A stretch of DNA of 64,000 nucleotides, taken from an uncultured Bacilli bacterium (GTDB lineage Bacteria; Bacillota_I; Bacilli_A; RFN20; CAG-826). The notes under the pieces were generated by a model that saw nothing but the letters and a program-made list of their open reading frames with translations, ran no database searches and had not been told where the DNA came from. Position 1 is the first letter of the stretch. Every line of letters begins with the position of its first letter. Shown here one piece after another: positions 1,960 through 37,570 of the stretch. The stretch spans positions 117,365-181,364 of the forward strand of contig CALVXI010000001.1 in NCBI GenBank assembly GCA_944368975.1, given 5' to 3'. The position numbers were made by a program, and so were the translations under genes.

Positions 1960-2829
1960 ATGGCTAGTTTTCAAGGTAAAAAGATTAACCCTAAAAAGTT
2001 TCATCCAAGTCAAATTAAGTTTTATATTTTCTTAATTCCTTTTGCAATCTTTATGGCAATCCCAATTGTCTATATGTTTACAACAGCTTTTAAGCCTCAA
2101 GAGGAGTTATTTAAATTCCCTCCATCAATTTTAGTTTATAACCCAACGATGGATAATTTTAAAAGCTTATTTGATTTATTTGAAACAAGTAGCGTTCCTG
2201 CTAGTAGATACTTATTTAACTCAATTTTAGTTACTTTATTAACTGTTGTTATTTCCGTTATTTTAAGTGTTAGTGCAGGTTATGTTTTAAGTAAGAAGCA
2301 TTTTAAAGGTCAAAAATTATTATTTGAAATTAATACTTTAGCCTTAATGTTTGTTCCTATTGCAGTTACTATTCCTCGCTTTATTATTATTGTTAATTTA
2401 GGATTAATTGATAAATTTATTTCGAATATTTTACCAATTATTGCAATGCCTATTGGTTTATTCTTAGTTAAACAATTTATTGATCAAATTCCTGATGCCG
2501 TAATAGAAGCTGCAAGAATTGATGGAGCTGGAGAATTTACTATTTTATTTAGAGTAATTATTCCAATGGTTAAACCAGCTTTAGCAACAATTGCAATTTT
2601 AAGTTTCCAAAGTGCTTGGGGAGCAACTGAAGCTAGTGTTTATTTCTTAAATGATGAGTCTTTAAAAACATTTGCTTATTATATTACAACTTTTGCTAGT
2701 GGTACTAATGCAGCAACTCAAGGAGTAAGTGCTGCTAGTGCTTTAATTATGTTTGTTCCTAATTTGATTATCTTTATTATTATGCAATCAAATGTTATGG
2801 ATACAATGGCTTATTCAGGTATTAAGTAA
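1960..2829 (+). CDS. Sugar ABC transporter permease (MalG/UgpE/LplC type)
   Basis: 289 aa with about 6 TM helices. EAA loop IEAARIDGAGEFTILFRVIIPMVKPAL. AAGGAG RBS just upstream of the ATG at 1960. Confidence 0.85.
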   Translation: MASFQGKKINPKKFHPSQIKFYIFLIPFAIFMAIPIVYMFTTAFKPQEELFKFPPSILVYNPTMDNFKSLFDLFETSSVPASRYLFNSILVTLLTVVISVILSVSAGYVLSKKHFKGQKLLFEINTLALMFVPIAVTIPRFIIIVNLGLIDKFISNILPIIAMPIGLFLVKQFIDQIPDAVIEAARIDGAGEFTILFRVIIPMVKPALATIAILSFQSAWGATEASVYFLNDESLKTFAYYITTFASGTNAATQGVSAASALIMFVPNLIIFIIMQSNVMDTMAYSGIK

Positions 2830-2830
2830 T

Positions 2831-7053: not shown

Positions 7054-7054
7054 G

Positions 7055-11615: not shown

Positions 11616-11617
11616 AC

Positions 11618-12814
11618 ATGGAATTAAACAAAGTGAATGCATATAAAGAATTAGAGTTATCAGTAAAATTCTTTTTAGACACATTTTCAAAAGAAGATAT
11701 AAGTTATGGTCTAGTGCCTGATACATATTTAACGACTAAATCAAACATTTCTTCGATAGCGGGAACTGGTTATTTATTTAGTGCTTTAGTGATTGGAAGT
11801 GAAATAAATTTAATCAGTAAAAATAAAGCTAAAGAGATCGCTATTAAAGCTCTTAAAACTATTAAAAATTTAAAAAGAGTTAAAGGATGGTATTATCATT
11901 TTTACGATATAAATAATGGTCAAAATACTCTTCATAGCGAAGTTAGCAATATTGATTCATGTTTATTATTTTTAGGAATTCTTACTTGTGGAGAATATTT
12001 TAAAGGAGAAGTTGAAAAACTTGCAAAAGAGATATTTTTCCTTGCAGATTTCAACTATTTTTTAGATAAATCTACAAATATTATGAATATGGCAATCGAT
12101 TATAAAGGGAATATGTATGCTAAATGGGATTATTTAGCTGAACAACTTATGATCTATATTTTAGGTGTTAATACTTTAAATAAAGATTACCGTATTCCAA
12201 AAGAAACTTTCTATAGCTTTAAGAAAAAATTAATGAGTTATGAAGAACTTAATTTCTATGCTTCTTGGAATGGTTCTTTATTTACTTATCAATATACTCA
12301 AACTTATGTTGATTTTAGAAATACAATTGATAATGAAGGTATTAATTGGTTTAATAATTCTAAATTAGCAACTATAGCAAGTTATCGTTATAGTAAAAGT
12401 TTAAAAGATAAATATCGTTCAATTAATGAATTAAGTTGGGGATTAACTGCTTCAGCTAGTAAAAAGGGCTATAGTGGAAATTATTCAAGTATTCCACTAG
12501 GAGATAAAGTAAATACTGTTGATGGAACAATGGCTCCTACTGGAGCAATTAGTTCAATAGTATTTCTTGAAAAAGAATCTCTTGATGCTATTAATCATTA
12601 TTATTCATTACCTTATTTAGTTGGAAAATATGGATTATATGATGCTTATAATGATGATTTAAATTTTGTTGCAGATTACTATATCTCAATTGATAAAGGA
12701 AATGCGATGGTTATGTTAAGTAATTACTTTAATGAAACAATCTGGAAATATTTCAATCAAATTGATTTTATTAAAGAAGCTAAGGAAATAATTGGAATTC
12801 GAAAGGAGAATTAG
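11618..12814 (+). CDS. Cytoplasmic paralogue of the preceding glucoamylase-like / GH144-like protein
   Basis: No signal peptide. Shares blocks with the 10278-11615 product: SSIAGTGYLFSAL, DYLAEQLMIYILGVN, LFTYQY, GINWF/GINWH, SWGLTASASKKGYSG, APTGAISS/APCGAIGS, GLYDAYN/GLYDSYN. Confidence 0.5.
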   Translation: MELNKVNAYKELELSVKFFLDTFSKEDISYGLVPDTYLTTKSNISSIAGTGYLFSALVIGSEINLISKNKAKEIAIKALKTIKNLKRVKGWYYHFYDINNGQNTLHSEVSNIDSCLLFLGILTCGEYFKGEVEKLAKEIFFLADFNYFLDKSTNIMNMAIDYKGNMYAKWDYLAEQLMIYILGVNTLNKDYRIPKETFYSFKKKLMSYEELNFYASWNGSLFTYQYTQTYVDFRNTIDNEGINWFNNSKLATIASYRYSKSLKDKYRSINELSWGLTASASKKGYSGNYSSIPLGDKVNTVDGTMAPTGAISSIVFLEKESLDAINHYYSLPYLVGKYGLYDAYNDDLNFVADYYISIDKGNAMVMLSNYFNETIWKYFNQIDFIKEAKEIIGIRKEN

Positions 12815-12816
12815 TT

Positions 12817-13938
12817 ATGGGGAGAATTTCATTACAACATATTTATAAAATTTACCCAGGTGCCACTGAACCTGCGGTAAAAGATTTTACTTTGGAAATT
12901 CACGATAAGGAATTCGTAGTTTTCGTTGGTCCTTCTGGATGTGGTAAGTCTACTACATTAAGAATGATTGCAGGACTTGAAGAAATCTCTAAAGGTGATC
13001 TTTATATCGATGATCGTAAAGTCAATAAAGTTGAACCTAAAGATCGTGATATCGCAATGGTTTTCCAAAATTATGCACTTTATCCATATATGACAGTATT
13101 TCAAAATATGTCATTTGGACTTCGTTTAAGAAAAGTTCCTAAAAAGGAAATTGAACAAAAAGTTCTTAAAGCTGCAAAAATTTTAGGAATTGAAGAATAT
13201 CTTGACCGTAAACCTAAAGCTCTTAGTGGTGGTCAAAGACAAAGAGTTGCTTTAGGTAGAGCTATCGTTCGTGAACCAAAAGTTTTCTTACTTGACGAAC
13301 CTTTAAGTAACCTTGATGCTAAGATGCGTGCTCAAATGAGAACTGAAATCATTAAGCTTCATAACGAATTACAAACAACATTCGTCTATGTTACTCACGA
13401 TCAAACAGAAGCTATGACAATGGGTACAAGAATCGTCGTTATGAAAGATGGTGTTATTCAACAAGTTGATACACCAGATAACTTATATGATTATCCAACT
13501 AATAAATTCGTTGCTGGTTTTATTGGAACACCACAAATGAACTTTATCGATGTAACTTTAATTAAAGAAAATGAAAATACTTATGCTACATTTGGTAAAA
13601 ATAAAGTTAAATTAGATGAAGAAACAGTTAAGAGAATTAAGATTAGTGATTATAACAATCATCAATTTGTCTTAGGTATTAGGCCTGAAGATATTTATCT
13701 TGAAGATGAAAAAGCAACAAGAGAAAATGGTTTAGTTGAAGCAAAAGTTAAAGTCTTGGAAAAACTTGGAAATGAAATACTAGTTTACACAAATTGCAGT
13801 GGTAAAGATGGTGAACTTGTATTTAGAAGTAAACCAAGAACAAATATTTATGAAGATGATGTCATTTCATTAAGATTTGACACCAAACAAATACATTTAT
13901 TTGATTTTAATACTGAAGAAACAATTTTAACTAGATAG
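12817..13938 (+). CDS. msmX: Multiple-sugar ABC transporter ATP-binding protein (MsmX/MalK type)
   Basis: Walker A GPSGCGKST, signature LSGGQRQRVALGRA, Walker B VFLLDEPLSNLD, H-loop YVTHDQ. C-terminal TOBE-like domain ends ISLRFDTKQIHLFD. AAGGAG RBS. Confidence 0.9.
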   Translation: MGRISLQHIYKIYPGATEPAVKDFTLEIHDKEFVVFVGPSGCGKSTTLRMIAGLEEISKGDLYIDDRKVNKVEPKDRDIAMVFQNYALYPYMTVFQNMSFGLRLRKVPKKEIEQKVLKAAKILGIEEYLDRKPKALSGGQRQRVALGRAIVREPKVFLLDEPLSNLDAKMRAQMRTEIIKLHNELQTTFVYVTHDQTEAMTMGTRIVVMKDGVIQQVDTPDNLYDYPTNKFVAGFIGTPQMNFIDVTLIKENENTYATFGKNKVKLDEETVKRIKISDYNNHQFVLGIRPEDIYLEDEKATRENGLVEAKVKVLEKLGNEILVYTNCSGKDGELVFRSKPRTNIYEDDVISLRFDTKQIHLFDFNTEETILTR

Positions 13939-23261: not shown

Positions 23262-23290
23262 TTGACAACATGCATTTTTGATTAAATAAT
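23262..23290 (+). promoter_or_regulatory. Putative sigma-A promoter of the malQ/maltodextrin operon
   Basis: TTGACA (23262-23267), 17-nt spacer, AATAAT (23285-23290). Confidence 0.5.
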
Positions 23291-23303
23291 GAAAGCGCTT
23301 ACA
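23290..23303. promoter_or_regulatory. Catabolite-responsive element (cre, CcpA operator)
   Basis: TGAAAGCGCTTACA matches every fixed position of the cre consensus TGWAANCGNTNWCA. It overlaps the end of the -10 box and the expected +1. Confidence 0.7.
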
Positions 23304-23321
23304 AAGAAAGTGTATGTTTTT

Positions 23322-24833
23322 ATGGAAAAATTAGAAGCAGGAATTTTGATGCATATATCTAGTTTACCTTCCTCTTATGGAATCGGTACTTTTGGTAAGG
23401 AAGCTTATGATTTTGTTGATTTTTTAAGTGAATCCAAAATGAAAATATGGCAAATCTTACCACTTAATTTAACTAGTTTTGGTGATTCTCCTTATCAAAG
23501 TCCATCAAATTATGGATTTAACTATTACTTTATTGATTTAGATATATTAAGAAGTAAAGGTTTACTTGAACTTGAAGATTATTCAGATATTGATTTTGGA
23601 AGTAATCCAAAAAGAGTAGATTATAAAAAACTTTTTGATGAAAGAATTAAAGTTCTTAAAAAAGCTTTTTCTAATTTTACTTACACTGATGATTTTAAAA
23701 GTTTTTTAAGAAATAATGTAAATGCCCGTGATTTTAGTTTCTTTATGACAATGAAAGAGCTAAATAATTTTGCCCCATGGAGTCAATGGAGGGGACTTAC
23801 AAACTCTTATTCGTTAGAACTAGAAAATAAGATCATAGCTGAAAATAAGCTCACTTTTGAGTTCTACATGTGGACTCAATATGAGTTTTTAAATGAATAC
23901 TTTGCTTTAAAAAGATATGCAAATAGTAAAGATGTTTTAATAATGGGTGATATTCCAATTTATTTAGCTTACGATAGTGTTGAATGTTATAAATATCCTT
24001 ATATGTTTCAAATGGATGAAAAACATAATCCAACAAATGTTGCAGGTTGTCCTCCAGATTGCTTTAGTGTAGATGGACAACTTTGGGGAAATCCATTATA
24101 TAACTGGGAATACTTTAAGAAAACAAATTATAAATGGTGGAATGAAAGAATCTTAAATGCTTTAAAGCTATATGATTTACTTCGTATAGACCACTTTAGA
24201 GGATTTAGTGCATATTATTCGATTCCATTTAAAGATAAAACTGCTAGAAATGGTAAATGGGTTAAAGGACCAGGATTTGATTTATTTAAAGATAAATTAG
24301 ACTATCCAATTATTGCTGAAGATCTTGGATATATCGATGATGATTTTAGAGATTTAATGAAGAAAACAAATTATCCTGGAATGAAAATCGTTACTCAAGG
24401 AGTTTTAGATTTAAATAAAGATAATGAATGGAGACCAAGTAATTATACATATAATTATTTTAGTTATACCTCAACGCATGATAGTGAAACTACTTTACAA
24501 TTTTTAGATAATTTATCTTTAAAAGATTTTGAATTAGCTCTTGAAGTTATAAAAGAAGAATGTGAATTATTAAATGTTCCATTTATAGATACATTAGATA
24601 AAAAAGAACTTACTTTAAAACTAGTTGAACTTAATATTGCTAGCAAAAGTAAAGTAGCAATGACTCCAATTCAAGATTTAATTCCTTTAGGAAAAGAAGC
24701 AAGAATGAATTTTCCTAGTACCTTATCAACTGATAACTGGTCATTTAGATTAACTAAAGATGAATTTTTGAAAAATAAGTTAAGAATTAGAGACTTTTTA
24801 AAGAAAAACGTCGAAAAATATAGAACAAATTAA
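23322..24833 (+). CDS. malQ: 4-alpha-glucanotransferase (amylomaltase, GH77)
   Basis: GILMHISSLPSSYGIGTFG, WQILPL, GDSPYQS, LRIDHFRGF, GNPLYNW and TSTHDS. Start set at ATG 23322 because the ORF-track start at 23289 would sit inside the promoter and cre site. Confidence 0.9.
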   Translation: MEKLEAGILMHISSLPSSYGIGTFGKEAYDFVDFLSESKMKIWQILPLNLTSFGDSPYQSPSNYGFNYYFIDLDILRSKGLLELEDYSDIDFGSNPKRVDYKKLFDERIKVLKKAFSNFTYTDDFKSFLRNNVNARDFSFFMTMKELNNFAPWSQWRGLTNSYSLELENKIIAENKLTFEFYMWTQYEFLNEYFALKRYANSKDVLIMGDIPIYLAYDSVECYKYPYMFQMDEKHNPTNVAGCPPDCFSVDGQLWGNPLYNWEYFKKTNYKWWNERILNALKLYDLLRIDHFRGFSAYYSIPFKDKTARNGKWVKGPGFDLFKDKLDYPIIAEDLGYIDDDFRDLMKKTNYPGMKIVTQGVLDLNKDNEWRPSNYTYNYFSYTSTHDSETTLQFLDNLSLKDFELALEVIKEECELLNVPFIDTLDKKELTLKLVELNIASKSKVAMTPIQDLIPLGKEARMNFPSTLSTDNWSFRLTKDEFLKNKLRIRDFLKKNVEKYRTN

Positions 24834-24905: not shown

Positions 24906-26183
24906 ATGAGAAGAAGTTTAAAATTATTTACTGTAAGTGCCGCTTTACTTCTAGGAGTTGGTGGTTTAGTTAGTTGTGGCGAAGATGAATCAATGATCAT
25001 CGAAGTTGCTGGTCCAGGTTCTCAACAAGCTTTAATCCAAGAATTAATTGACGATTTTAAAGCAAGTAATGAAGATGCTGCTAAATATACTTGGAGATTT
25101 AGAGATATGGGTGAAGACCAAGTTGAATCTCAAGTACCAGATCCAGCAAAAGGTCCTGAAGTTTTCCATTTTTCAAGTGATAAACTTGCTAACTTATTCA
25201 AATTAAATTTATTACAAGGTGTTAGTAAAGATAGTACCTATGGAAAATGGATTGCTGAAAATAATACTGAAACAGCTTTAGGTTTTGCTGAATTTGCTGG
25301 AAAATATTATGCTTATCCATATGCAGAAGATAATACATATGTCTTATTCTATGATAGTTCTAAATTAACTGTAGAAGATGTTGCTACTTATGAAGGATTA
25401 ATTGCTAAATTAACTGAATTATCTGCTGATTTACCAGCTGATGCTAAAAAATATCAAGTAGCTTATCCTTGGGGAACTTCATATTATTCAACAGGTGTTA
25501 TGTTTACTTATGGTGCTAGATATAATGTTGAATATGATACTACAACTGGTGCTTTAACTAATGTTACTGCTGACTTTGATACTGAAAAAGGACTTAAAGC
25601 TGGTAAAGTCTTACTTCAATTTAAAAAAGATGAAGCATATGTAGTTGATCAAGGTGATGCTATTCCTACTCAAAGTGGATCTGAAAATATTATTGCTAGT
25701 GTTACTGGTACATGGAATGTTTCAAAATTAAAAGAACAATTAGGTGATAATTATGCAGTTGCTACTTTACCTACAATTACAATTGATGGTGATACAAAAA
25801 CATTAGGAAGTTTCTTAGGAGCTAAATTAATGGGTGTTAATGCTGCTGCTATTGGAACTGATGAAACTAAATCTGCTGTATGTCATGCTTTTGCTCAATA
25901 TGCTACAGGAAAAGATGCTCAAATTAAACGTCATGAAATGTATGGTACTGGAGGAACTAATATTGAATTTAGACAAACTGATGCCTTTAAAAATGACCCA
26001 GCTCAACAAGCAGTAGCTAAACAAACTGAATTAGGAAATGCTGTTTTACAAACTAATGTTCCTGGAAAATTATGGGATGCATTTACTGCAGTTTCTGCTG
26101 ATATTAAATCTGGTACTACAACTGAAGCTAACTTAGCTGATGCCTTAGTTACTGCTAATAACGTTATTCAAACATCTAGATAA
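24906..26183 (+). CDS. Maltodextrin/maltose-type ABC transporter substrate-binding lipoprotein
   Basis: Lipobox GGLVSC with an AAGGAGG RBS. Family-1 SBP-like sequence directly upstream of MalF/MalG-like permeases in a starch locus. Confidence 0.8.
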   Translation: MRRSLKLFTVSAALLLGVGGLVSCGEDESMIIEVAGPGSQQALIQELIDDFKASNEDAAKYTWRFRDMGEDQVESQVPDPAKGPEVFHFSSDKLANLFKLNLLQGVSKDSTYGKWIAENNTETALGFAEFAGKYYAYPYAEDNTYVLFYDSSKLTVEDVATYEGLIAKLTELSADLPADAKKYQVAYPWGTSYYSTGVMFTYGARYNVEYDTTTGALTNVTADFDTEKGLKAGKVLLQFKKDEAYVVDQGDAIPTQSGSENIIASVTGTWNVSKLKEQLGDNYAVATLPTITIDGDTKTLGSFLGAKLMGVNAAAIGTDETKSAVCHAFAQYATGKDAQIKRHEMYGTGGTNIEFRQTDAFKNDPAQQAVAKQTELGNAVLQTNVPGKLWDAFTAVSADIKSGTTTEANLADALVTANNVIQTSR

Positions 26184-26249: not shown

Positions 26250-27785
26250 ATGACACAAATAGAATTGATGTCAAAACCAAAATTTGAAAGATTTTTCTTA
26301 AGAATTGGAATATTTTTTTCAAGTCTTCCTTTAAAATTATCACTTTTTTTTAGAAATTTTCCTTTCTTTTTAAAGAAAGTAGGTTCTAAATTAATTAAAC
26401 CATTTGAAGTATTAAATGATGCTTTTATTAATGGTGATTGGAAGACTAGATTATCTTTCCTTTTTTGTGGTTTTGGACAAATATTCAATAAGCAAGTAGT
26501 CTATGGAATAATAAACTTTCTTTTTGAAGTTTGCTTTATAGTTTATATGTGCTTAGTTGGTGTACCTTGGATATCAAAATTTGGTACATTAGGTATTCCT
26601 ACTGATGAAATAGGTAATGCTTGTGATGTCTATATTAATGATATAACTGGAACTGAATTTTATGATTGTCATGGCAATACTAATGATAGTCGATTCATTA
26701 TCCTTTATTCCTTAATTACTATATTCTTTATGATTTGTATGCTTTATGTTTGGTATTCTTCAATTAGAAAAGCTAAACTTTTACAAGATTATAATGTTAT
26801 AGGAAAGAAAGAAACTGATAAAGACGTTACTAAAACTTTTGTTTCTAGAAACTATGATAAAACATTATTAGCTGTTCCACTTACTGGTGTTATAGTTTTT
26901 ACTGTTTTACCTTTAGTTTTTATGATTTTAATTGCCTTTACTAATTATAGTAGTGAATTTAATGGCTCTAAACTTGTTTTTAACTGGGTAGGCTTACAAA
27001 ATTTTGCTAATATGGCAGGACTTGGTGCAGGGTATGAAACATTTTTACCTACAATGTTAAAAATATTAGTTTGGACATTAATTTGGGCATTTTTTGCTAC
27101 ATTTACAAATTATTTCTTAGGAATGATTGTCGCTTTATTAATTAATCAAAAAGCTGTCAAACTTAAAAAATTATGGAGAACAGTTTTAATTACAACAATA
27201 GCTGTTCCTCAATTTGTTAGTTTACTTTTAATTAATAAGATGATTCAAGATAATGGTATTATTAATAACTTACTTCAACAATGGGGAATTATTTCTAGTC
27301 CAATAAGATTTTTATCTGATGCAATGATTGCTAGAGTAATGGTTATTGTTGTTAATATGTGGGTTGGTATTCCTTATACAATGTTAATTTGTACTGGTAT
27401 CTTATTAAATATTCCTGAAGATTTATATGAATCAGCAAGAATTGATGGTGCTAGTCCACTTAAAATGTATATGAAGATTACTTTACCATATATGTTATTT
27501 GTTACTACACCATATCTTATTCAACAATTTGTTGGTAATATTAATAACTTCAATGTTATTTATTTACTTACTCAAGGCGGACCATTGACTCAAACTTATG
27601 CTGCTGGTGCTGGTCAAACTGACTTACTTATTACTTGGTTATATAAATTAACGATGACTAATGCTAGTAAAGATTATGCTATGAGTAGTGTTATTGGTAT
27701 TATTGTTTTCTGCGTTGTCGCCTTTATTTCTTTAATCTTCTATTCAAAGAGCAAGAGTGTAAAAAATGAGGAGGAATTCCAATAA
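26250..27785 (+). CDS. Maltodextrin ABC transporter permease (MalF type)
   Basis: 511 aa with extra N-terminal TM helices and a large external loop, as in MalF. EAA loop LYESARIDGASPLKMYMKITLPYM. AAGGAG RBS. Confidence 0.85.
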   Translation: MTQIELMSKPKFERFFLRIGIFFSSLPLKLSLFFRNFPFFLKKVGSKLIKPFEVLNDAFINGDWKTRLSFLFCGFGQIFNKQVVYGIINFLFEVCFIVYMCLVGVPWISKFGTLGIPTDEIGNACDVYINDITGTEFYDCHGNTNDSRFIILYSLITIFFMICMLYVWYSSIRKAKLLQDYNVIGKKETDKDVTKTFVSRNYDKTLLAVPLTGVIVFTVLPLVFMILIAFTNYSSEFNGSKLVFNWVGLQNFANMAGLGAGYETFLPTMLKILVWTLIWAFFATFTNYFLGMIVALLINQKAVKLKKLWRTVLITTIAVPQFVSLLLINKMIQDNGIINNLLQQWGIISSPIRFLSDAMIARVMVIVVNMWVGIPYTMLICTGILLNIPEDLYESARIDGASPLKMYMKITLPYMLFVTTPYLIQQFVGNINNFNVIYLLTQGGPLTQTYAAGAGQTDLLITWLYKLTMTNASKDYAMSSVIGIIVFCVVAFISLIFYSKSKSVKNEEEFQ

Positions 27786-28645
27786 TGAGTAAATCTTTTT
27801 CATCCTCAATTAGAGTAAGAAAAAATATTAGATTAACATTAACTTATATAGTTTTAGCTATAATTAGTGTTATTTGGTTAATTCCATTTGTTTATATTAT
27901 TGCTCAATCTTTATCAGTAGATACTGCTAATTTTAGTGTCTTTTTCCCTGATGAATGGACATTTGATAATTATATTCTTTTATTTACTGATCAAAGTAAA
28001 CCATTCTGGAGATGGTGGCTTAACACATTTATTATCGCCGGATGTACATGTATTATTCAAACTCTTATTACATTAGCTACATCCTATGCCTTCTCAAGAC
28101 TTAGATTTAAATCAAGAAAATTTATTATGAAAACATTCTTAATTATTGGAATGTTCCCAAGCTTCTTAACAATGATTATTAACTATTTCTTGTTAGATAT
28201 CTTAGGTTTATCTTCATCTATATTTGGACTTGTTTTAATTTATTGTGCTAGTAGTGCAATGGGTTATTACATTGCTAAAGGATTCTTTGATACAATCCCT
28301 AAGTCACTTGATGAAGCGGCTATGATTGATGGTGCTAATAAAAATACAATTTTCTTTAAAATTATTTTGCCTTTAAGTAAACCAATTGTTGTTTATACAG
28401 TATTAATGGCTTTCACTGGTCCTTGGGGAGACTTTATGATGGCAAGTTATATTGCTCAAGGTGATGTTCAACTTATGAACGTAGCTGTCGGTTTACAAAA
28501 CTTAGCATTAGTTGGTGAAATTACTAAATATTTCTCTAGATTCTGTGCAGGTGGCGTCGTAACATCTATTCCAATTATGATTTTATTCTTCTGGTTACAA
28601 AGATATTATGTTGAAGGCGTTACTGGAGGAGCAGTTAAAGGATAA
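27785..28645 (+). CDS. Maltodextrin ABC transporter permease (MalG type)
   Basis: 286 aa with 6 TM helices. EAA loop LDEAAMIDGANKNTIFFKIILPLSKP. The start overlaps the upstream stop (TAATG). Confidence 0.85.
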   Translation: MSKSFSSSIRVRKNIRLTLTYIVLAIISVIWLIPFVYIIAQSLSVDTANFSVFFPDEWTFDNYILLFTDQSKPFWRWWLNTFIIAGCTCIIQTLITLATSYAFSRLRFKSRKFIMKTFLIIGMFPSFLTMIINYFLLDILGLSSSIFGLVLIYCASSAMGYYIAKGFFDTIPKSLDEAAMIDGANKNTIFFKIILPLSKPIVVYTVLMAFTGPWGDFMMASYIAQGDVQLMNVAVGLQNLALVGEITKYFSRFCAGGVVTSIPIMILFFWLQRYYVEGVTGGAVKG

Positions 28646-28647
28646 TT

Positions 28648-30225
28648 ATGTTTAGAAGTAGAAAAATTAAATTTTATAGTTTAACTTTACTATCTTCGAT
28701 TTTATTAATCGGATGTGGTCCAAAAAGTTTCGATCCTGATTTTGATCCAAAAACAGTTGAAATTATTGATGATAATTATCGTAATTATTATGAAATTTTC
28801 GTCGCTAGTTTTGCCGATAGTGATGGAGATGGAATGGGCGATCTTAATGGAGTAACTTCTAAATTAGACTACATTCAAGATTTAGGATTTACTGGTATTT
28901 GGTTAATGCCAATAAATGAAAGTAGTTCCTATCATAAATATAATGTTGATGATTATTATAAGATCGATGAAGATTATGGGACAATGGAAGATTTTGAAAA
29001 TCTTATTGAAGAAGCCCATAAAAGAGATATTAAAGTTATCATCGATTTAGTATTAAATCATAGTGGTAATAGAAATGAATGGTTTGGAAAAAGTTATCGT
29101 GCTTATTCTAAAAAGATTAAAAATCAACCATTAACAGAAGAAGAAGAAAAATTTGCGACTTTATATTCTTTTAGTGAAACACAATTAAATGGTTATCAAC
29201 AAGTTCCTGGTTTTTCATTTTATTATGAGGCTAATTTCTCAAATGATATGCCAGAATTTAATTGGGATTCAGAATTCTTTACTGAAACTTGGCATGACAT
29301 AGTTGATTTCTATAATGAATTAGGTGTTGATGGATATCGTTTAGATGCAGTTAAATATTATTATTTAAATGATGATACGAAAAATGTTGAAGCTTTAAAA
29401 GCATTTAATGATTATGTCAAAACTAGTAATCCTGATGCTTATATAGTAGGTGAAAATTGGTCTGAACCAAGTAGTATTGAAAGATATTATGATAGTGAAT
29501 GTGATAGTTTCTTTGCTTTCTTTGCTTCAAGTGCAAATGGTGATGGTGGATTTATCAAGGATAGCTTATATTATCAAGGTTATCCTGCTAAATATTTAAG
29601 TGGACTTAAAGAACTTGAAAGAGTTTCTATTAAAGGTATCGCTGCACCATTTTTAGATAATCATGATATGGGAAGAATTCGGTTATCTTCTCAACCAAAT
29701 TGGAATAAATTCATGTATGGATTACTATCAATGTTACCTGGAACAACTTTCACTTATTATGGAGATGAAATTAATATGAGTGGCGGTCAAAAGCCAGATC
29801 AAAATTATCGTATCCATATGGATTGGGGTGATCCAACTATTGAAACAGAAGATCCTAAAGGAACTACTATAAACGAATATGATTATCCTAACGTTAAAGA
29901 TCAATATTTAGATGCTAATAGCAAATTAAACTATGTTAAAAAAGCAAATTATTTAAGAAATACAATAAAAGAAATTGCTAGAGGCTCATTAACTAATGAA
30001 AAAATAGATGAAATTAATAAATATTTAGTTTTAGAAAAAACTTATAATAACGAAAAGATTTATATTTTATTAAACTTTAATGAAAATAGCGAAGTTGAGA
30101 TTGATTTATCTTCTATTAGTTATCAAGAAGTAATTGGTGAATTAAATATGAATTATTTTGATAAAGCAACGATTAATAATAAAGTTGCAACATTAAAACC
30201 TTATGGCATTTTAATTTTAAAATAG
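28648..30225 (+). CDS. Extracellular lipoprotein alpha-amylase-family enzyme (GH13)
   Basis: Lipobox LLIGC. GH13 regions DLVLNHSG (I), GVDGYRLDAVKYY (II), IVGENW (III) and FLDNHDMGR (IV). Confidence 0.85.
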   Translation: MFRSRKIKFYSLTLLSSILLIGCGPKSFDPDFDPKTVEIIDDNYRNYYEIFVASFADSDGDGMGDLNGVTSKLDYIQDLGFTGIWLMPINESSSYHKYNVDDYYKIDEDYGTMEDFENLIEEAHKRDIKVIIDLVLNHSGNRNEWFGKSYRAYSKKIKNQPLTEEEEKFATLYSFSETQLNGYQQVPGFSFYYEANFSNDMPEFNWDSEFFTETWHDIVDFYNELGVDGYRLDAVKYYYLNDDTKNVEALKAFNDYVKTSNPDAYIVGENWSEPSSIERYYDSECDSFFAFFASSANGDGGFIKDSLYYQGYPAKYLSGLKELERVSIKGIAAPFLDNHDMGRIRLSSQPNWNKFMYGLLSMLPGTTFTYYGDEINMSGGQKPDQNYRIHMDWGDPTIETEDPKGTTINEYDYPNVKDQYLDANSKLNYVKKANYLRNTIKEIARGSLTNEKIDEINKYLVLEKTYNNEKIYILLNFNENSEVEIDLSSISYQEVIGELNMNYFDKATINNKVATLKPYGILILK

Positions 30226-30234
30226 GAGAAAAAT

Positions 30235-32790
30235 ATGGCAGGTTTAAAATTAGAACATATTTATAAAGTTTATCCTAATGGAACTAAAGCAGTAAGTGAT
30301 TTTACAATGGACATTCAAGACCAAGAATTTATTGTTTTTGTTGGTCCTAGTGGTTGTGGTAAATCTACTACTTTAAGAATGATTGCTGGCTTAGAAGAAA
30401 TTAGTGCTGGTGAACTTTATATTGATGACAGAATTGTAAATGATGTTGAACCAAAAGATAGAGATATTGCGATGGTTTTCCAAAACTATGCTCTTTATCC
30501 ACATATGACAGTTTATGAAAATATGGCTTTTGGTTTACAACTTAGACATATGCCTACAGAAGAAATTCATGAAAAAGTTATGTGGGCAGCTGAAGTTTTA
30601 GGTTTAACTGATTATTTAGATAGAAAACCTAAAGCGATGAGTGGTGGTCAAAGACAAAGAGTTGCTTTAGGAAGAGCTATTTTAAGAAATCCTAAAGTAA
30701 TGTTATTAGATGAACCATTAAGTAATCTTGATGCAAAATTACGTGCTCAAATGAGAAGTGAAATTGCTAAACTTCATAAACAACTTAAAACTACTTTTAT
30801 TTATGTTACTCATGATCAAATTGAAGCTATGACTTTAGGAAGTAGAGTTGTTGTTATGAAATTAGGAAGAATTCAACAAGTTGATACACCTAAAAACTTA
30901 TATGATTACCCAGGAAATAAATTCGTTGCTGGATTCATTGGAACTCCACAAATGAATTTCTTTGAAGGAACATTATTAGATTTAGGAAAAGAAGTTGAAA
31001 TTACTTTCAAATATAGCGATGCTAAAATTTATATTCCAAGAGAACAATTAACTAAAGTTAATTATGAATATCTTGATGGAAAACATGATGTTTATATCGG
31101 TATTAGATGTGAAAATATTGCTGAAGCTAGTAAAGATGATGATCCTAAACTTTGTATTGATTGTAAAGTATCTCACTTTGAAGAACTTGGCAATGAAACT
31201 TTAATTTATGGCGATATCAATATGCAAGGTGATGGATTTAAAGAAACATCAACTCGTGTTATCTTTAAAGGCACACCAAATAACAATATTAAAATTGATA
31301 ATGTTGTAAAAATTAAATTAGATGCTAGTAAACTTCATTTCTTTGATAAAGAAACTGAAGAAAGTATTTCTTTAAGAATTCCTAAAGAAAATATCTTACT
31401 TTCTAAGATTGAAGGTTCTAAATTAGTTTTAGGTGATAAAGAAGTTACTTTACCTAAGGCTATTACTTCTAAATTAAGTGGGAATACTACTGGTAAATGT
31501 TTATTTAGTTTAGATGCTATCTTATTAAATGAAGGAAAAGAAAAAGCTACTATCGTTAATATTGAAGAAGTTAATGGAAATTATTTATTACATCTAAAAT
31601 ATGGAAATAACTTAATTTTCACTTTTGGTAAAAAAGAAAATAAAGTTAATGAAGTCGTTAAATTTGATATTGACTATACAAAAGTTAAATTTATCGATGA
31701 AAATGGTAATAAAGTAATCGAAGAACTTCCTGAATTTGATAAAGTTTATGGTAATTTTGTTAACTTAAATACATATTTATATAAAACTCATGATGAATCA
31801 ATTACTCATGAAATTGAAGAATTAAAAGTTAAAATTAATAGTGAATATGATACTAAAGTTAACGAAGTTAAAGCAAAATACACTGCATTAAAAGAAGAAG
31901 TTTCTAAAAAAGATTACACTTCAATTAATAAAGAAAATAATGAAGAATTAGCTGTTAAAACTCAAAAATATAAAGATCAAGTTAATGTTTTAAAAGCTGA
32001 ATTAAAAGCTAAACTCACTAGTGAGAAAAATGATTATAAAGCTAAAGTAAAAGAAACAAAAGATAGAATTATGTCTCAATATAGAGATATGTTCTATAAT
32101 GAAAAATCTACTTATCTTGATATTAAAAATAATAATAAAGATAAAGATGCAATTAAAAGAGCTCGTGCTGAATTCTTAGAAAGAAAAGAAAATCTTCCTA
32201 AAGAAAGAGAAAATGAAATTAATAATGCTATTAATTCATTAGCTTTAAATTATGAAACAGCTACTAGTGCTTTAAAATCTGGTTTTAAAAGAGAAAAATT
32301 AGCTCTTAAAAAATCTTTAAATGAACTTATTGAAAAAGCTAAAAAAGATAAAGAACCACTTAAACATATTGGAAAAGAAGAAACTAATGAAATTAGTGTT
32401 TTAGAAAAAGAAAGAAAAGAAGCTCTTTCTAAAGCTGCTATTAGATTCTATTTCGATATTAATAATACTTATTTTGAATGTAATGAATTAATTTCTAATA
32501 AGATTATTCAAGCACTAGGAACAAAGGTCTTTATTAAAAAATATTTATTTAAATTACCACACGATTCTTATTTATTAAAAGATAAAGGTATTGAAGCTAT
32601 TGTTAAAGATAACTTAGATTATGGTAATAAACAATTTGCAGTTTGTGAATGTGATTCTCTTAGCGGAAAGAAAGAAACATTAATCTTAGAAACTAAGAAA
32701 CCATTAGAAGTTGATAGTAAAGTTTATGTTGATATTGACTTTACAAAGAGCCATATAATCGAAACTGGCTTAGATATTAGATTATATTAA
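30235..32790 (+). CDS. MsmX/MalK-type ABC ATPase fused to a ~476-aa C-terminal extension (extra TOBE-like modules plus coiled coil)
   Basis: aa 1-375 are canonical: GPSGCGKST, MSGGQRQRVALGRA, VMLLDEPLSNLD and YVTHDQ, with TOBE end VKIKLDASKLHFFDKE. aa 376-851 are additional and include VVKFDIDYTKVKFIDEN, a K/E-rich helical region (~aa 520-735) and KVYVDIDFTKSHIIETG. Confidence 0.85.
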   Translation: MAGLKLEHIYKVYPNGTKAVSDFTMDIQDQEFIVFVGPSGCGKSTTLRMIAGLEEISAGELYIDDRIVNDVEPKDRDIAMVFQNYALYPHMTVYENMAFGLQLRHMPTEEIHEKVMWAAEVLGLTDYLDRKPKAMSGGQRQRVALGRAILRNPKVMLLDEPLSNLDAKLRAQMRSEIAKLHKQLKTTFIYVTHDQIEAMTLGSRVVVMKLGRIQQVDTPKNLYDYPGNKFVAGFIGTPQMNFFEGTLLDLGKEVEITFKYSDAKIYIPREQLTKVNYEYLDGKHDVYIGIRCENIAEASKDDDPKLCIDCKVSHFEELGNETLIYGDINMQGDGFKETSTRVIFKGTPNNNIKIDNVVKIKLDASKLHFFDKETEESISLRIPKENILLSKIEGSKLVLGDKEVTLPKAITSKLSGNTTGKCLFSLDAILLNEGKEKATIVNIEEVNGNYLLHLKYGNNLIFTFGKKENKVNEVVKFDIDYTKVKFIDENGNKVIEELPEFDKVYGNFVNLNTYLYKTHDESITHEIEELKVKINSEYDTKVNEVKAKYTALKEEVSKKDYTSINKENNEELAVKTQKYKDQVNVLKAELKAKLTSEKNDYKAKVKETKDRIMSQYRDMFYNEKSTYLDIKNNNKDKDAIKRARAEFLERKENLPKERENEINNAINSLALNYETATSALKSGFKREKLALKKSLNELIEKAKKDKEPLKHIGKEETNEISVLEKERKEALSKAAIRFYFDINNTYFECNELISNKIIQALGTKVFIKKYLFKLPHDSYLLKDKGIEAIVKDNLDYGNKQFAVCECDSLSGKKETLILETKKPLEVDSKVYVDIDFTKSHIIETGLDIRLY

Positions 32791-32815: not shown

Positions 32816-34096
32816 ATGAAATTAACAAGAATATTATTATTAGCAGTACCTGCTTTAATGCTTGGAGTTACTGCTTGTAATCCTGAAGAAGGAGAAGGCG
32901 GAGGAGGCGGAACTACTGCTACAATTCCTACCGAAGAAGGAAAAACAACTCTTTACTTTAATTTAACAAGTGAAGACAATGTTTTAACTAATGATTATAC
33001 AACTATCTGGGGAACAGGTGGTTATAATGGATGGAAAACTGGAGCTGAATCAACTGAATTTAAACCGGTTTCTGAAGGAAGTTCAACTTGGTATGCTATA
33101 GTTGATACATGGGATACAACTGCTGAACAAGGTTTAGAAATTATGCTCATGCTTGGTTATAAAGCTGACTTACTTAATCCTGGTTTAATTTGGTCAAATG
33201 GCGACCAATATAAAGCTGCTGGATATGATATTCCTGGCGGCCCAAATATGACATTTACTGTTGAAGATGGTAAAGCTAATTTAGGTGATATTAGTTTTAA
33301 TGCTGAATTACCTGAACCAGTTGAAAACATTATGTTTACTCCAAAAATTACATTTAAAGATACATTACCAGATTATGTTAATGTTTATTTAAAAGGAACA
33401 TTTACTAATGTTGATGGCGTTAGTGGATGGGATTTCACTCAAGATATGGCTTATTGTAAAACTATGGATCACAAATCATTTACCTTAAGTCAAGCCGTTT
33501 ATGCTAGACCAGATAGTGAAGTTGTAATTCATGTTCTTTTAACAAATGCCGCTCCAGTCGAAGGCGAAGCTATTACTGATTATACTTATTCATATAAATT
33601 TGATAGTAGAGAGGGGGAAAATGGCAATGCTCCAAGTGTTACTGTTACTTTAGAAGATAATAATAAAATCGTTACATTAGCTGATGCTCTTGAAGTGGAA
33701 TTACCTCCAGATCCAAGTAGTGCCACTGTTACTAGTATTACTGGTAATATTACTGAAGTTGAAGGTGCTGCTTTACCAGCCGATACTAAATATTATGTCG
33801 TCGGTGGTTATAATGAATGGGGAAATCCAACAGTAGAATTAACTGAAACTGCCACTGGTTATACATTTACTATTGATGAAGAAGATATGACTTCAACTAT
33901 TTATGTTGGTGGATCAGTTGAAATTAAATTAGTTCAAGTAGTAGCTGAAACTGGTGCTCCAAATTGGGATACAGCAATCGGAGTTGATGGTGGAGGAAAT
34001 TACAAAGTTACTTGTGACGTAGCTACACCAACAGCTAGTATTGAACTTTATACAGTTACACCTGCTGAAGGTGATGCTTATCTTTGCTTAAGATAA
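32816..34096 (+). CDS. Surface lipoprotein with starch-binding-module-like repeats
   Basis: Lipobox GVTAC followed by NPEEGEGGGGG linker. Three G-x-x-N/G-x-W-type segments (WGTGGYNGWKTG, GTFTNVDGVSGWDF, VVGGYNEWGNP) are reminiscent of starch-binding CBMs. GAGGAGG RBS. Confidence 0.5.
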   Translation: MKLTRILLLAVPALMLGVTACNPEEGEGGGGGTTATIPTEEGKTTLYFNLTSEDNVLTNDYTTIWGTGGYNGWKTGAESTEFKPVSEGSSTWYAIVDTWDTTAEQGLEIMLMLGYKADLLNPGLIWSNGDQYKAAGYDIPGGPNMTFTVEDGKANLGDISFNAELPEPVENIMFTPKITFKDTLPDYVNVYLKGTFTNVDGVSGWDFTQDMAYCKTMDHKSFTLSQAVYARPDSEVVIHVLLTNAAPVEGEAITDYTYSYKFDSREGENGNAPSVTVTLEDNNKIVTLADALEVELPPDPSSATVTSITGNITEVEGAALPADTKYYVVGGYNEWGNPTVELTETATGYTFTIDEEDMTSTIYVGGSVEIKLVQVVAETGAPNWDTAIGVDGGGNYKVTCDVATPTASIELYTVTPAEGDAYLCLR

Positions 34097-34165: not shown

Positions 34166-36814
34166 ATGAGAAGTTTTAAGCTTTTAAAAGTATTTTCATT
34201 ATTTGGCTTTGCTTTTTCTTTAATTAGTTGTAATAAAGAAAATAATGAAAATAATCAAGGTTGGGAAGGAAATTTAGTAAAAGGACCAGATTTAGGTGGA
34301 AAAGATGGTGTAGCTATTAGATACCAAAGAAAAGATAAACAATATGATAAATGGGGTTTATGGATTTGGGAAAATAATGGTGGAGATGGTAAAGAATATA
34401 CTTTTAGTGAAGTCGATGATTTTGGCGGAGTATGTTTTATTCCTTTAGATAATTTTTCTAGTTCAGTATTAACTAACGGATTAGGAATTATTACTAAAAC
34501 ATTAGGTAGTTGGTCACAACAATCTGCTGATATGATTTTAGATTTTTCTTTATATAGTAAAGATGAACAAGGTTACTATAACGTTTTTACAAGAGAAAAT
34601 GATAATAAATTATATGCCACACCTGATTTTAAATTTGTTGATGAAATTTTAGATGCTAGCTTCATTAATAGTAGTACTATTGAAGTAAAGACATCTAACC
34701 CAATCTCTTCTTATAAATTTTATGAAAATGGTAATGAAATCGCTAGTGAAAGTGATATTGAAGAAACTTCAATAAGTTATCACTTTACTACTTCACATAT
34801 GCCTAATATTAAAAATAAATATAGTGTTGAAGTAACATTTAAAGATTCTAAAGAAGTACAAAGTAGTGATGTCTCTATTAGAGGTTTATATAATACTGAT
34901 TTATTTAATAATGAATATTATTATGATGGTGATCTTGGTGCAATTTACACAAGTGAAAGTACAACTTTTAAAGTATGGTCTCCATTAAGTGAAGAAATTA
35001 AATTAAGAATTTATGAAAACGGAACTCCAACAAGCGTCAATAAAGAGCTTGGTAATGATAAATATGAAGAATATCCAATGACTTTAAAAGAAAAAGGAGT
35101 TTATGAAGTTACTGTTAGTGGTGATTTAGAAGGAAAATATTATACTTATGTTGTTACTAATAGTAATTATAAAAATAAAGAAATCGTTGATCCATATGCT
35201 AAATCTACTGGTATTAATGGTTTAAGAGGTATGATTGTTGATTTTAGTAAGACTAATCCTGAAGGTTGGAATGAAGCTAGTATGAATCCTTATAGTCGAA
35301 CTGAATTAGTAATATATGAAACTCATGTTGCTGATGTCACTAGTAGTGATACTTGGGGTGGAAGTAAAGAAAATCAAAAGAAATTTTTAGGATTAAGTGA
35401 AACTAATACAACTTATCAAGATGATAATAATGTCACTGTTAAAACTGGGTTTGATCATATTAAAGATTTAGGAATAAATGCTATTCAACTTCTTCCTATT
35501 TTCGATCAACAAAATAACGAAATAGCAACTGGCGACACTGCCTTTAACTGGGGTTATAATCCATTAAATTATAATTCTTTAGATGGTATTTATAGCACTA
35601 ACCCTTATGATGGTTATAGTAAGATTAAAGAATTTAAAGAAGTAGTTAAAGCTTATAATGAAGCTGGAATTAACGTAATAATGGATGTTGTTTATAATCA
35701 CGTTAATGGAGCAACAGGTAGTAATTTTGATGTCTTAATGCCAGGATATTTCTTTAGATATAATAAAGATAATACATTAAGTAATGGTAGTGGTTGTGGT
35801 AATGAAACGGCTAGTGAAAACTTAATGTTTAGAAAATTTATGGTTGATTCAACTGAATTTTGGGCTAAAGAATATCATTTAGGTGGCTTTAGATTCGATT
35901 TAATGGGTTTACATGATATTGAAACAATGAATGAAATAGCTTCTAACTTAAAAGAAAATTATAATGAAAATGTCTTTATTCATGGTGAACCTTGGACTGG
36001 TGGAACTACTCCATTAACTAGTAGTGAACAAGCAAAACAAGATAATTTATCTAAATTTGTTGGTTATGGTGCTTTTAATGATAAATTTAGAGACGGATTA
36101 ATTAAAGGTGGTCTTAATAGTGTTACTACTAAAGGTTGGGCAACTAGTTTAAATGCTACTAGAGTTAATAGTAGTGATTATAATTTAATTACAAGTGGTA
36201 TTATGGGTAAAACTGGGGCTATCGATGATGATCCATTAAAAACAACAAATTATGTAACGTGTCATGATAACTATACTCTTTATGATCGAATTAAAGGAAC
36301 TAATTTTACTGGAAGTGATGAAGAAATTGCTAAAATGGCTACTTTAGCTAATGCCGTAACATTTACTAGTGAAGGAACTTCATTTATACTTGCAGGAGAA
36401 GAAATGTTAAGAACTAAAGATGGAGATGGTAATTCTTATGAATCTGGTTATAAAGTTAATGAATTAGATTATTCTAGACTGATTACTTTTAGTGATTTAT
36501 ATGAAAACTATAAATCTTTAATTGAATTAAAAACTACTTTTGGTGGTTTAAATTATGAAACTAGTGAAGAAATTGAAGCTAACTTAACATTTAATCAAGA
36601 TAATTATAGTTATAAGAAGATTGATTATAGTATTAATTATAATAACGAAACTTATCGATTTATTCATGTTAGTAGTGCAAATATTACTAATGTCACTATT
36701 GATTTAAGTGGTTATGAATTAATTTTAGATACTTTAGGTTTAGATAATGCATCTAATTTAAGTGATTATCCATTAAGTAGTTGTCAAAGTATTGTATTAA
36801 GAAAGGTTGCTTAA
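34166..36814 (+). CDS. pulA: Type I pullulanase lipoprotein (GH13, with N-terminal carbohydrate-binding domains)
   Basis: Lipobox SLISC. FNWGYNPLNY (the YNWGYDP motif), DVVYNHV, GFRFDLMG, HGEPW and YVTCHDN. The N-terminal IRYQRKDKQYDKWGLWIWE is typical of pullulanase N-domains. Confidence 0.9.
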   Translation: MRSFKLLKVFSLFGFAFSLISCNKENNENNQGWEGNLVKGPDLGGKDGVAIRYQRKDKQYDKWGLWIWENNGGDGKEYTFSEVDDFGGVCFIPLDNFSSSVLTNGLGIITKTLGSWSQQSADMILDFSLYSKDEQGYYNVFTRENDNKLYATPDFKFVDEILDASFINSSTIEVKTSNPISSYKFYENGNEIASESDIEETSISYHFTTSHMPNIKNKYSVEVTFKDSKEVQSSDVSIRGLYNTDLFNNEYYYDGDLGAIYTSESTTFKVWSPLSEEIKLRIYENGTPTSVNKELGNDKYEEYPMTLKEKGVYEVTVSGDLEGKYYTYVVTNSNYKNKEIVDPYAKSTGINGLRGMIVDFSKTNPEGWNEASMNPYSRTELVIYETHVADVTSSDTWGGSKENQKKFLGLSETNTTYQDDNNVTVKTGFDHIKDLGINAIQLLPIFDQQNNEIATGDTAFNWGYNPLNYNSLDGIYSTNPYDGYSKIKEFKEVVKAYNEAGINVIMDVVYNHVNGATGSNFDVLMPGYFFRYNKDNTLSNGSGCGNETASENLMFRKFMVDSTEFWAKEYHLGGFRFDLMGLHDIETMNEIASNLKENYNENVFIHGEPWTGGTTPLTSSEQAKQDNLSKFVGYGAFNDKFRDGLIKGGLNSVTTKGWATSLNATRVNSSDYNLITSGIMGKTGAIDDDPLKTTNYVTCHDNYTLYDRIKGTNFTGSDEEIAKMATLANAVTFTSEGTSFILAGEEMLRTKDGDGNSYESGYKVNELDYSRLITFSDLYENYKSLIELKTTFGGLNYETSEEIEANLTFNQDNYSYKKIDYSINYNNETYRFIHVSSANITNVTIDLSGYELILDTLGLDNASNLSDYPLSSCQSIVLRKVA

Positions 36815-37570
36815 TTGCATAAAATGAATCTAAAGAAATATTTTATATTTATACCTTTAACTCTTTTATTAATAAGTTGTGATAATAATGTACCACTTGA
36901 AATAGCTAATATTGTTAATGGTTTTAGTATTGAAAAAGCTTTATTAAATGATACAACGTGTTCTTTAAATTATTTAGAAACTCATTATGAATATGATAAT
37001 GATTTTAAAGAAATAAAAGTCTATTCAAATGAAGTAGAAGTATCTTTTGATTCATCAAGCGAAGAAAATTATTATTATTACATTAAAGAAACTACTAATA
37101 ACATTAAAGAAAATAATGTTATTAGTAGTGAAATTCTTGCTAGGTATATTGAAGTTGATAAATATGAGTTATCTACTAAAGATAGTGATGGATTAAATAT
37201 TGAAACTATATCTAAATTATCAATGCAAGAAAATTTAACTGAATTTTATTACCGTGAAGCTAGTAATGAAATGTATAGTGGTGGATTATATTTTGGAGAT
37301 GAATTTAAGATTAATATTAATCAATATATTTATATGGATATAATTGATGGATATTTAACTTACACATTAGAATATACGCAATTTGATAAATTACCATTTT
37401 TACAGAAGTTAAGTTATGATGTTGATGGTGTTGGAATGGTTAAAAATTTTTATCAAGAAATTATTGAATTTGAACATAATGATATAACAACAGCTAAACC
37501 TATAAGAAAAAATATATTTACATTAACTTCAATATATAATCAAAAACTTAATAAACTAGAGAATTTATAA
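36815..37570 (+). CDS. Lipoprotein of unknown function (last gene of the starch locus)
   Basis: Lipobox LLLISC. A TTG start at 36815 has AAAGG 8 nt upstream, and ATG 36824 is an alternative start. No recognisable domain. Confidence 0.5.
   Translation: MHKMNLKKYFIFIPLTLLLISCDNNVPLEIANIVNGFSIEKALLNDTTCSLNYLETHYEYDNDFKEIKVYSNEVEVSFDSSSEENYYYYIKETTNNIKENNVISSEILARYIEVDKYELSTKDSDGLNIETISKLSMQENLTEFYYREASNEMYSGGLYFGDEFKININQYIYMDIIDGYLTYTLEYTQFDKLPFLQKLSYDVDGVGMVKNFYQEIIEFEHNDITTAKPIRKNIFTLTSIYNQKLNKLENL

Follow-up and report, generated by a model that had tools for sequence, protein, structure and literature searches.

An MsmX/MalK-type sugar-importer ATPase with two additional regulatory-type domains and a long helical region, encoded in an alpha-glucan operon of uncultured Bacilli

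In a 64,000-nucleotide stretch of DNA from an uncultured Bacilli bacterium (contig CALVXI010000001.1), referred to below as the window, a long ATP-binding cassette (ABC) ATPase of 851 amino acids (aa) is encoded at 30235..32790 on the + strand, within an operon whose other genes lie on the same strand and were classified by their matches to Pfam. The run of genes directly upstream holds a binding protein and two BPD_transp_1 permeases: it consists of a GH77 4-alpha-glucanotransferase (23289-24833), a solute-binding protein of the SBP_bac_8 family (24906-26183), a MalF-like permease (26250-27785), a MalG-like permease (27785-28645) and a GH13 lipoprotein (28648-30225) with a lipobox in its translation. 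Downstream follow a lipoprotein of 426 aa with a weak CBM53 match (32816-34096), a pullulanase-type GH13 lipoprotein (34166-36814) and a 251-aa lipoprotein (36815-37570) that belongs to no Pfam or NCBIfam family. The product of the long gene is very probably a dedicated maltodextrin-importer ATPase, in which an MsmX/MalK body is followed by two ancient copies of its regulatory domain, the last of which carries an insert of four helices and about 215 residues with a conserved turn. Our tentative reading is that the whole appendage gives the maltodextrin importer a larger scaffold for regulation or docking.

The protein, which is of the MsmX/UgpC type, opens with a nucleotide-binding domain (NBD; aa 1-235, 30235..30939; PF00005, E = 8.6e-32) and a canonical MalK-type regulatory domain (REG; aa 236-378, 30940..31368). 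Next come module 1 (M1; aa 379-497, 31369..31725), which hhalign, PDB profile matches and an AlphaFold2 (AF2) model mark as a second, diverged regulatory-domain copy, and a segment of aa 498-520 (31726..31794), which by the AF2 model and its conservation probably supplies the first strand of module 3 (M3; strand 501-510) and the lead-in to the helices. The helical region, a probable insertion, occupies aa 521-735 (31795..32439), and the core of M3, probably a third, TOBE-like copy by the same three lines of evidence as M1, occupies aa 736-851 (32440..32787). M3 as defined here comprises residues 498-512 plus 736-851.

An earlier note on this DNA had proposed that the open reading frame (ORF) continues uninterrupted past the end of the ATPase. 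Indeed, 30235..32790 is a single open frame with no interruption, closed by a stop codon at 32788-32790, and the three endings that the note had quoted, VKIKLDASKLHFFDKE, VVKFDIDYTKVKFIDEN and KVYVDIDFTKSHIIETG, all occur in the translation. The region of the gene has a GC content of only 22-25%, and the possible artefact is that a frameshift from sequencing or assembly joined msmX to a separate gene downstream, or that a non-coding AT-rich stretch stayed open. A frameshift or assembly fusion is excluded, because the identical 851-aa sequence was found on at least seven independent contigs in NCBI/ENA assemblies (the longest 388 kb), and the gene is likewise a single ORF in the genomes of three GTDB species. 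At least 117 further clusters have the same length with 100% coverage. At the base composition of the extension (44% A, 32% T), the chance of 476 stop-free codons is about 2e-23; the other two forward frames of the extension contain 32 and 115 stops, and AF2 models the extension with confidence. The artefact was thus rejected, and we regard its probability as practically nil.

Residues 1-378 match structures in the PDB from end to end (7x0q, E = 1.6e-131; 6yir, 2.1e-119; 1g29, 2.5e-97; the weakest listed, 5.6e-91), with REG aligned to the complete regulatory domains of these three, and REG scores 29.3 bits with PF17912 (OB_MalK), over the cut-off of 27 bits. The six ABC motifs are all intact, namely Walker A (GPSGCGKST), Q83, the signature (SGGQ), Walker B (LLDE), the D-loop (SNLD) and H193. 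The window also encodes a short MsmX paralogue of 373 aa (12817..13938, + strand) in a second sugar-importer operon, with matches to ABC_tran, OB_MalK and TOBE_2, and this was taken as the reference for the end of a normal protein. It is 60% identical to residues 1-378 and its last aligned residues fall at residue 378; therefore, the extra 473 residues start exactly where the normal protein ends. With these end-to-end matches, the full set of motifs and the shared end point, the complete MsmX-like ATPase that had been placed at the N-terminus is confirmed, and by sequence comparison it belongs to the MsmX/UgpC/MalK subfamily, the ATPases of CUT1-type importers.

The UgpC subfamily model of NCBIfam (NF008653) covers residues 1-378 with 462.6 bits against a cut-off of 432 bits, whereas the MalK equivalog NF008233, for the E. 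coli-type maltose ATPase, stays below its cut-off (398.3 vs 568 bits). All named relatives are annotated either as 'sn-glycerol-3-phosphate ABC transporter ATP-binding protein UgpC' or as 'multiple sugar transport system ATP-binding protein'. The substrate in the UgpC name, which derives from the subfamily model, is probably a misnomer, because the gene sits in an alpha-glucan operon, and transport of glycerol-3-phosphate was rejected as the likely function for the same reason. Although not a MalK equivalog of NCBIfam, the long ATPase is MalK-like in function by its operon context.

The evidence for the additional regulatory copies comes from profiles and from the predicted structure. Profile-profile comparisons by hhalign were run with an alignment of 17 sequences and, independently, with one of 118. 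In these, REG (236-378) aligned to M1 (379-497) over 108-110 columns, which is the whole domain (94-96.5% probability, E = 1e-9 to 1e-7), and M1 aligned to M3 over 71-96 columns (96-97.7%, E = 1.6e-12 to 3e-9). A profile of M1 and M3 searched against all PDB sequences (E up to 10) found eight chains, every one of them a MalK/MsmX-type ATPase, and the three alignments printed all fall on regulatory domains; the best match for M1 is to residues 237-354 of 2it1 (E = 2e-4) and that for M3 to residues 298-364 of 6yir (E = 0.05). By these profile methods, M1 is homologous to the MalK regulatory domain, and M3, mainly through M1, appears to be so too. Searches for repeats at the DNA level gave short AT-rich chance matches alone, which speaks for an old triplication and against tandem duplication in recent times.

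The AF2 model used here was computed from the 118-sequence alignment (a single-sequence run gave a predicted local distance difference test score, pLDDT, of 34) and has a pLDDT of 80.8 overall, mostly above 85 across the extension and about 90 in M1 and M3. An order of strand-strand-strand-short helix-seven strands is seen three times in it: in REG (strands 240-249, 253-258 and 264-268, short helix 269-272, remaining strands to 371), in M1 (strands 385-393, 396-399 and 402-405, short helix 408-411, remaining strands to 488) and in M3 (strand 501-510, then the helices, strands 738-742 and 745-748, short helix 751-761, remaining strands to 843). The motifs at the start of the three units are alike as well (TPQMNFFEGTL in REG, IPKENILLSKI in M1 and LPEFDKVYGNF in M3). 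The idea of the earlier note that the regulatory OB/TOBE module had been triplicated is thus supported by hhalign, by the PDB profile matches and by the order of elements in a confident model. Typical of the M3 core are the motifs PHD-Y and DYG, a helix whose sequence (ISNKIIQALG) is conserved, and RLY at the C-terminus; D502, F508 and N510 are conserved in the strand 501-510, and K756, Q759, K768, H776 and D795 form a conserved polar cluster. As a separate observation on the model, NBD residues 39-42, 55-87 and 132-165 fall below a pLDDT of 50, which is not a sign of disorder and is probably caused by near-invariant NBD columns in a shallow family alignment.

The K/E-rich helical part of about 215 residues, as it had been described, is borne out by composition (17.9% K and 13.6% E in residues 506-740), by a high-confidence prediction of helices at 521-557, 561-633, 637-706 and 708-735 (pLDDT of about 82-93), and by a family-averaged hydrophobicity period of 3.5 residues that was exceeded by none of 500 shuffles. 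The median identity of relatives to the window protein in this region is 26%, yet segments 636-707 (72 aa) and 708-737 (30 aa) have the same length in 118 of 118 sequences, and segment 561-635 (75 aa) in 114 of them; such constancy at so low an identity means that the helices are a fixed-geometry element, not a floppy spacer. The most conserved spot of the region is the central turn, which joins helices 561-633 and 637-706, with its flank (aa 630-651, 32122..32187; IKNNNKDKDAIKRARAEFLERK). In the turn itself, 634-636 (NKD), N634 is conserved in 100%, K635 in 93% and D636 in 96% of the sequences, with D638 at 91%; beside it, E623 reaches 99%, and basic and aromatic columns 93-97%. Against the PDB and Pfam, the helical region gave noise alone (E of 0.46 or more, and one sub-threshold match to a phage tail).

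The earlier division of the extension into a beta-rich, a K/E-rich helical and a beta-rich part stands, but M3 seems to start already at strand 501-510, ahead of the helices, which would then interrupt its first beta-hairpin and would not be a spacer between two modules. In a class of relatives of about 630 aa, the segment matching 498-520 is joined to the rest of M3 by a short loop, and an insertion into the hairpin would explain why this class is able to lack the helices. With such a topology, the two ends of the helical unit would be adjacent and its arrangement antiparallel. If the unit were a single hairpin, the breaks at 558-560 and at the conserved P708 would lie opposite each other; the modelled helix lengths fit a single hairpin and a folded four-helix unit alike.

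These properties of the helices bear on a second reading of the appendage, in which the appendages of the two subunits would bind each other, through additional contacts between regulatory domains and with the helices in one bundle, and would hold or tune the tweezers-like opening of the NBDs without an external partner. MalK regulatory domains constitutively form a dimer handle, and the clamp would be an extension of it. Helix lengths that stay constant in 118 sequences at about 26% identity would fit helices packed in register, as would the strong amphipathic, heptad-like periodicity, and it is known of MalK that the regulatory domains keep its dimer together. However, the class of about 630 aa copes without the helices, and the conserved polar turn resembles a specific contact site more than the core of a bundle; we consider this reading possible but rather unlikely.

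The long architecture is that of a large family, not a peculiarity of the window genome. An exhaustive HMMER search with residues 376-851 yielded 67 representative clusters, and two architectures were recognized in the family: one of 848-871 aa, like the window protein, and one of 617-637 aa, in which the ATPase is followed by M1 and M3 with a short loop in place of the helices. Among the best 120 matches of the full-length query were the cluster of the window protein itself and at least 117 further clusters at 90% identity, of 820-868 aa and with 100% query coverage, some of which have over 400 member sequences. The long form is carried by RF39/Onthovivens, Anaeroplasmataceae, Erysipelotrichales and other Bacilli metagenome-assembled genomes (MAGs). 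Other routes to relatives were less productive: a word-index homologue search with the extension alone returned nothing, as K/E-rich words saturated its 8000 candidates, a search with the M1+M3 profile recovered just a 239-aa fragment of the window protein, and a scan of contigs with the single extension found none; working patterns for the scan of genome contigs came from a three-sequence alignment. Judged from sequence conservation, the whole extension is under purifying selection, the extra regulatory-type domains and the helical unit alike.

The class of about 630 aa includes P0020, P0037, P0046, P0047, P0050, P0061 and P0065, all uncharacterised and annotated as UgpC. P0050 lies in an equivalent maltodextrin operon, whereas P0065 (617 aa) lies in a LacI/GH30 operon, so that the triple-domain body is not restricted to alpha-glucan systems. 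A further protein, P0184 (1088 aa, from an Erysipelotrichales MAG), has an MsmX-type ATPase that is 60% identical over 65% of the query and is fused to DUF6693 and DUF898 (membrane-protein) regions, which stand where the helix-bearing module would be; it may be a different fusion, or a join made in gene calling or assembly. The carbohydrate ATPases MG187/MPN134 of Mycoplasma, with a length of about 585 aa, may be further relatives.

Two helix-bearing members have degenerate ATPase motifs. P0021 (946 aa, L013:10001-12841) keeps M1, the helices and M3, while its signature reads LSEDT, its Walker B motif LIDD, its H-loop histidine is missing and its regulatory domain is partly deleted; its gene stands alone in a neighbourhood of housekeeping genes that includes no permease. 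P0014 (L011:10001-12556) keeps the appendage with a Walker A motif of GDKNSSKST, a signature of LSPLI and a glutamine in the H-loop, and its gene lies behind two permeases, with the binding protein and the glycosidase absent nearby. Such proteins, which retain the appendage although their ATPase motifs have decayed, would fit a moonlighting or structural role, in which arm and modules tether the transporter to a cell structure or cluster transporters, largely independently of ATP-driven transport; the conserved basic and aromatic residues beside the turn would fit it too. Against this, the ATPase motifs are perfectly conserved in the window protein and most relatives (the median NBD identity to the window protein across the family is 89%), and the genes for these proteins lie within the transporter operon, which makes a role of this kind quite improbable. 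As a speculative variant, itself improbable, the protein could be an 'armed' ABC ATPase whose fixed-length arm, with its conserved basic and aromatic turn, would be a mechanical or positional element that physically links the importer to the membrane, to sister complexes or to a cytoplasmic alpha-glucan enzyme, with a function of its own that outlives catalysis, as P0021 and P0014 would suggest. If sister complexes were linked, importers would be clustered beneath the surface amylase and pullulanase lipoproteins as a starch-utilisation patch.

In the loci examined, the helix-bearing form goes together with alpha-glucan operons. Genes in the order binding protein-MalF-MalG-GH13-ATPase are also present in Candidatus Onthovivens merdipullorum (L001), where the extension is 51% identical to that of the window, in an Anaeroplasmataceae MAG (L002; 31%), in a Bacillota MAG (L003; 29%), in a JGI metagenome contig (L005) and in L010, where the ATPase is of the 632-aa form. 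The helix-bearing form was found in an alpha-glucan operon at five of the seven loci examined, the exceptions being the degenerate P0014 and P0021; all five helix-bearing members with intact ATPase motifs and examined loci are in alpha-glucan operons.

This association could also be read as that of a trans-inhibition sensor, in which the modules would bind a small molecule of the cytoplasm, for instance maltodextrin, maltose or a sugar phosphate, and would lock the importer once enough of it has accumulated, as ModC does with molybdate and MetN with methionine. To our knowledge, no sugar-type MalK/MsmX regulatory domain is known to bind substrate, which counts against such a sensor, and no ligand-binding motif is recognisable in the modules; in addition, the rigid unit of 215 helical residues would be left unexplained, and the GH30 operon that holds a member of the 630-aa class has no link with alpha-glucans. 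In its favour, the conserved polar cluster of M3 could form a binding site, and, according to references 11 and 12 of PMC10710835, the TOBE domain of the molybdate importer ATPase ModC and the C-terminal domain of the methionine importer ATPase MetN give trans-inhibition. On balance, we consider a sensor of this type improbable.

The tentatively favoured reading, an enlarged regulatory or docking scaffold, builds on what the MalK regulatory domain does elsewhere. In E. coli, EIIA-Glc binds this domain to block the closing motion of the NBDs, and the domain sits below the NBDs and helps to hold the dimer (structures 1q12 and 2awn, both among the PDB and structure-search matches of the long ATPase). 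EIIA-Glc bound to MalK prevents the rotations between domains on which ATP hydrolysis depends (PMC10710835), and the regulatory domain is a hub for both EIIA-Glc and MalT (PMC11466899). In the window, the partners of the ATPase would be the binding protein and the MalF-like and MalG-like permeases encoded alongside it, and the two ATPase copies of an assembled transporter would carry, beneath the dimer of their NBDs, two rigid helical arms together with four additional modules of the regulatory type. The appendage would then bind either a partner in the cytoplasm or its counterpart on the other ATPase copy, by way of the conserved polar patch of M3 and the conserved helical turn, and this contact would gate the closure of the NBDs or report the activity of the transporter. 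Taken as a whole, with identity, anatomy and proposed mechanism together, this seems to be the best explanation, to which we give a probability of roughly 45%.

Several observations weigh against it. No regulator gene adjoins the operon within the window, and the orphan, degenerate P0021 may indicate a role of the appendage that is unrelated to transport. As for the anatomy, the direct hhalign comparison of REG with M3 gave only a partial alignment (28-48 columns, 74-81%, E of about 1e-5), and M3 is tied to the regulatory-domain family mainly via M1 in these sequence profiles. No Pfam or NCBIfam model matches the extension of the window protein, M1 and M3 both staying below the thresholds of PF17912 and PF08402, and weak TOBE_2/OB_MalK matches on the modules were seen in just two of 17 family members (best E-values, 0.004 and 0.011). 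Every chain that Foldseek retrieved with the whole model was of the MalK type, and the alignments covered the first ~375-390 columns; this result is dominated by the NBD and silent on the modules.

Other proteins of the window also deserve mention. The lipoprotein encoded at 32816-34096 has a Gly/Thr-rich linker, and its CBM53 match is sub-threshold (E = 5e-4; 20.7 bits vs a 27.6-bit cut-off); it is likely a novel starch-binding surface protein. The 251-aa lipoprotein is homologous (25% identity, E = 2e-11) to a 257-aa lipoprotein of the metagenome contig (L005:11209-11982), whose gene, in loci of the Anaeroplasmataceae type, comes shortly downstream of that for the long ATPase and after a conserved ORF of 214 aa that the window is without. 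The 251-aa protein is probably a part of the starch system at the cell surface that has gone unrecognised. The permease extensions to which the earlier note had referred correspond to two permeases at 6941-8557 (538 aa) and 8560-10275 (571 aa), in which BPD_transp_1 begins at about residues 319 and 373, respectively, so that each has some 300 extra N-terminal residues with no family match; the note had seen in them and in the long ATPase a possible theme of cytoplasmic add-on modules in this genome. Ahead of the second sugar-importer operon, 2792-7053 encodes a 698-aa protein with a Yip1 domain and an NHL repeat and a 728-aa DUF5696 protein, and the operon itself includes two PF10091 'putative glucoamylase' proteins (10278-12814).

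Among ABC importer ATPases, MalK/MsmX is the textbook case, and post-translational control of such importers has its paradigm in the one regulatory domain of this protein. An ATPase of this kind that has several regulatory domains or a coiled coil is not described in the full-text literature searched, which misses most subscription-journal papers, and the long form is thus a widespread variant of a very well-known protein that apparently has not been described. Its annotation as UgpC leaves the architecture invisible in databases. Its carriers are abundant, unstudied, uncultured and genome-reduced gut Bacillota, for which starch-derived maltodextrins appear to be a main food, because amylase, pullulanase and glucanotransferase genes are in the operon. 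That a strongly conserved and widespread form has three regulatory-type domains and a rigid helical arm implies that control or organisation has a further layer here, absent from the model systems; it would surprise specialists in ABC transporters, although the present evidence, from sequences and a model, does not yet demonstrate a new principle.

Among known proteins, SMC, Rad50 and MukB are alike in layout alone, as ABC ATPases with a long arm of fixed length, presumably antiparallel, and a conserved turn. In SMC and Rad50 the coiled coil starts within the NBD, at a point between Walker A and the signature, and has a hinge or a zinc hook at its end, whereas the helices of the window protein come after the NBD and two regulatory-type modules, apparently inside the C-terminal OB/TOBE module and far from the catalytic core; their turn (NKD) has no CxxC, and no match to the SMC hinge family or sequence relationship to these proteins was found in Pfam and the PDB. 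ModC (TOBE; 3d31) and MetN (C2/NIL) are, like the window protein, importer ATPases with a C-terminal beta-rich regulatory domain, which in their case controls the closure of the NBDs. However, they have one such domain with a defined small-molecule site, while the window protein has three copies plus helices and no recognisable ligand site.

The closest systems are those of MsmX of B. subtilis (6yir), Clo1313_2554 of C. thermocellum (7x0q) and MalK of T. litoralis (1g29) and E. coli (1q12/2r6g), which have the same NBD and OB_MalK/TOBE parts as residues 1-378. The MsmX/MalK systems also have the same partners, a CUT1-type binding protein and two permeases, and the same alpha-glucan operon chemistry as the window. 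The MsmX of B. subtilis is a stand-alone ATPase common to several importers (Table 2 of PMC11466899), in contrast to the operon-encoded ATPase of the window. The ATPases of 617-637 aa from Clostridia and other Bacillota MAGs share with the window protein the order NBD-REG-M1-M3 and the boundaries of the modules, but their M3 has no PHD-Y motif, and the helical part of about 215 residues is missing from them. In short, the known MsmX/MalK proteins end at about 360-380 aa, whereas the window protein continues for 473 residues, with two regulatory copies and a probable helical insertion.

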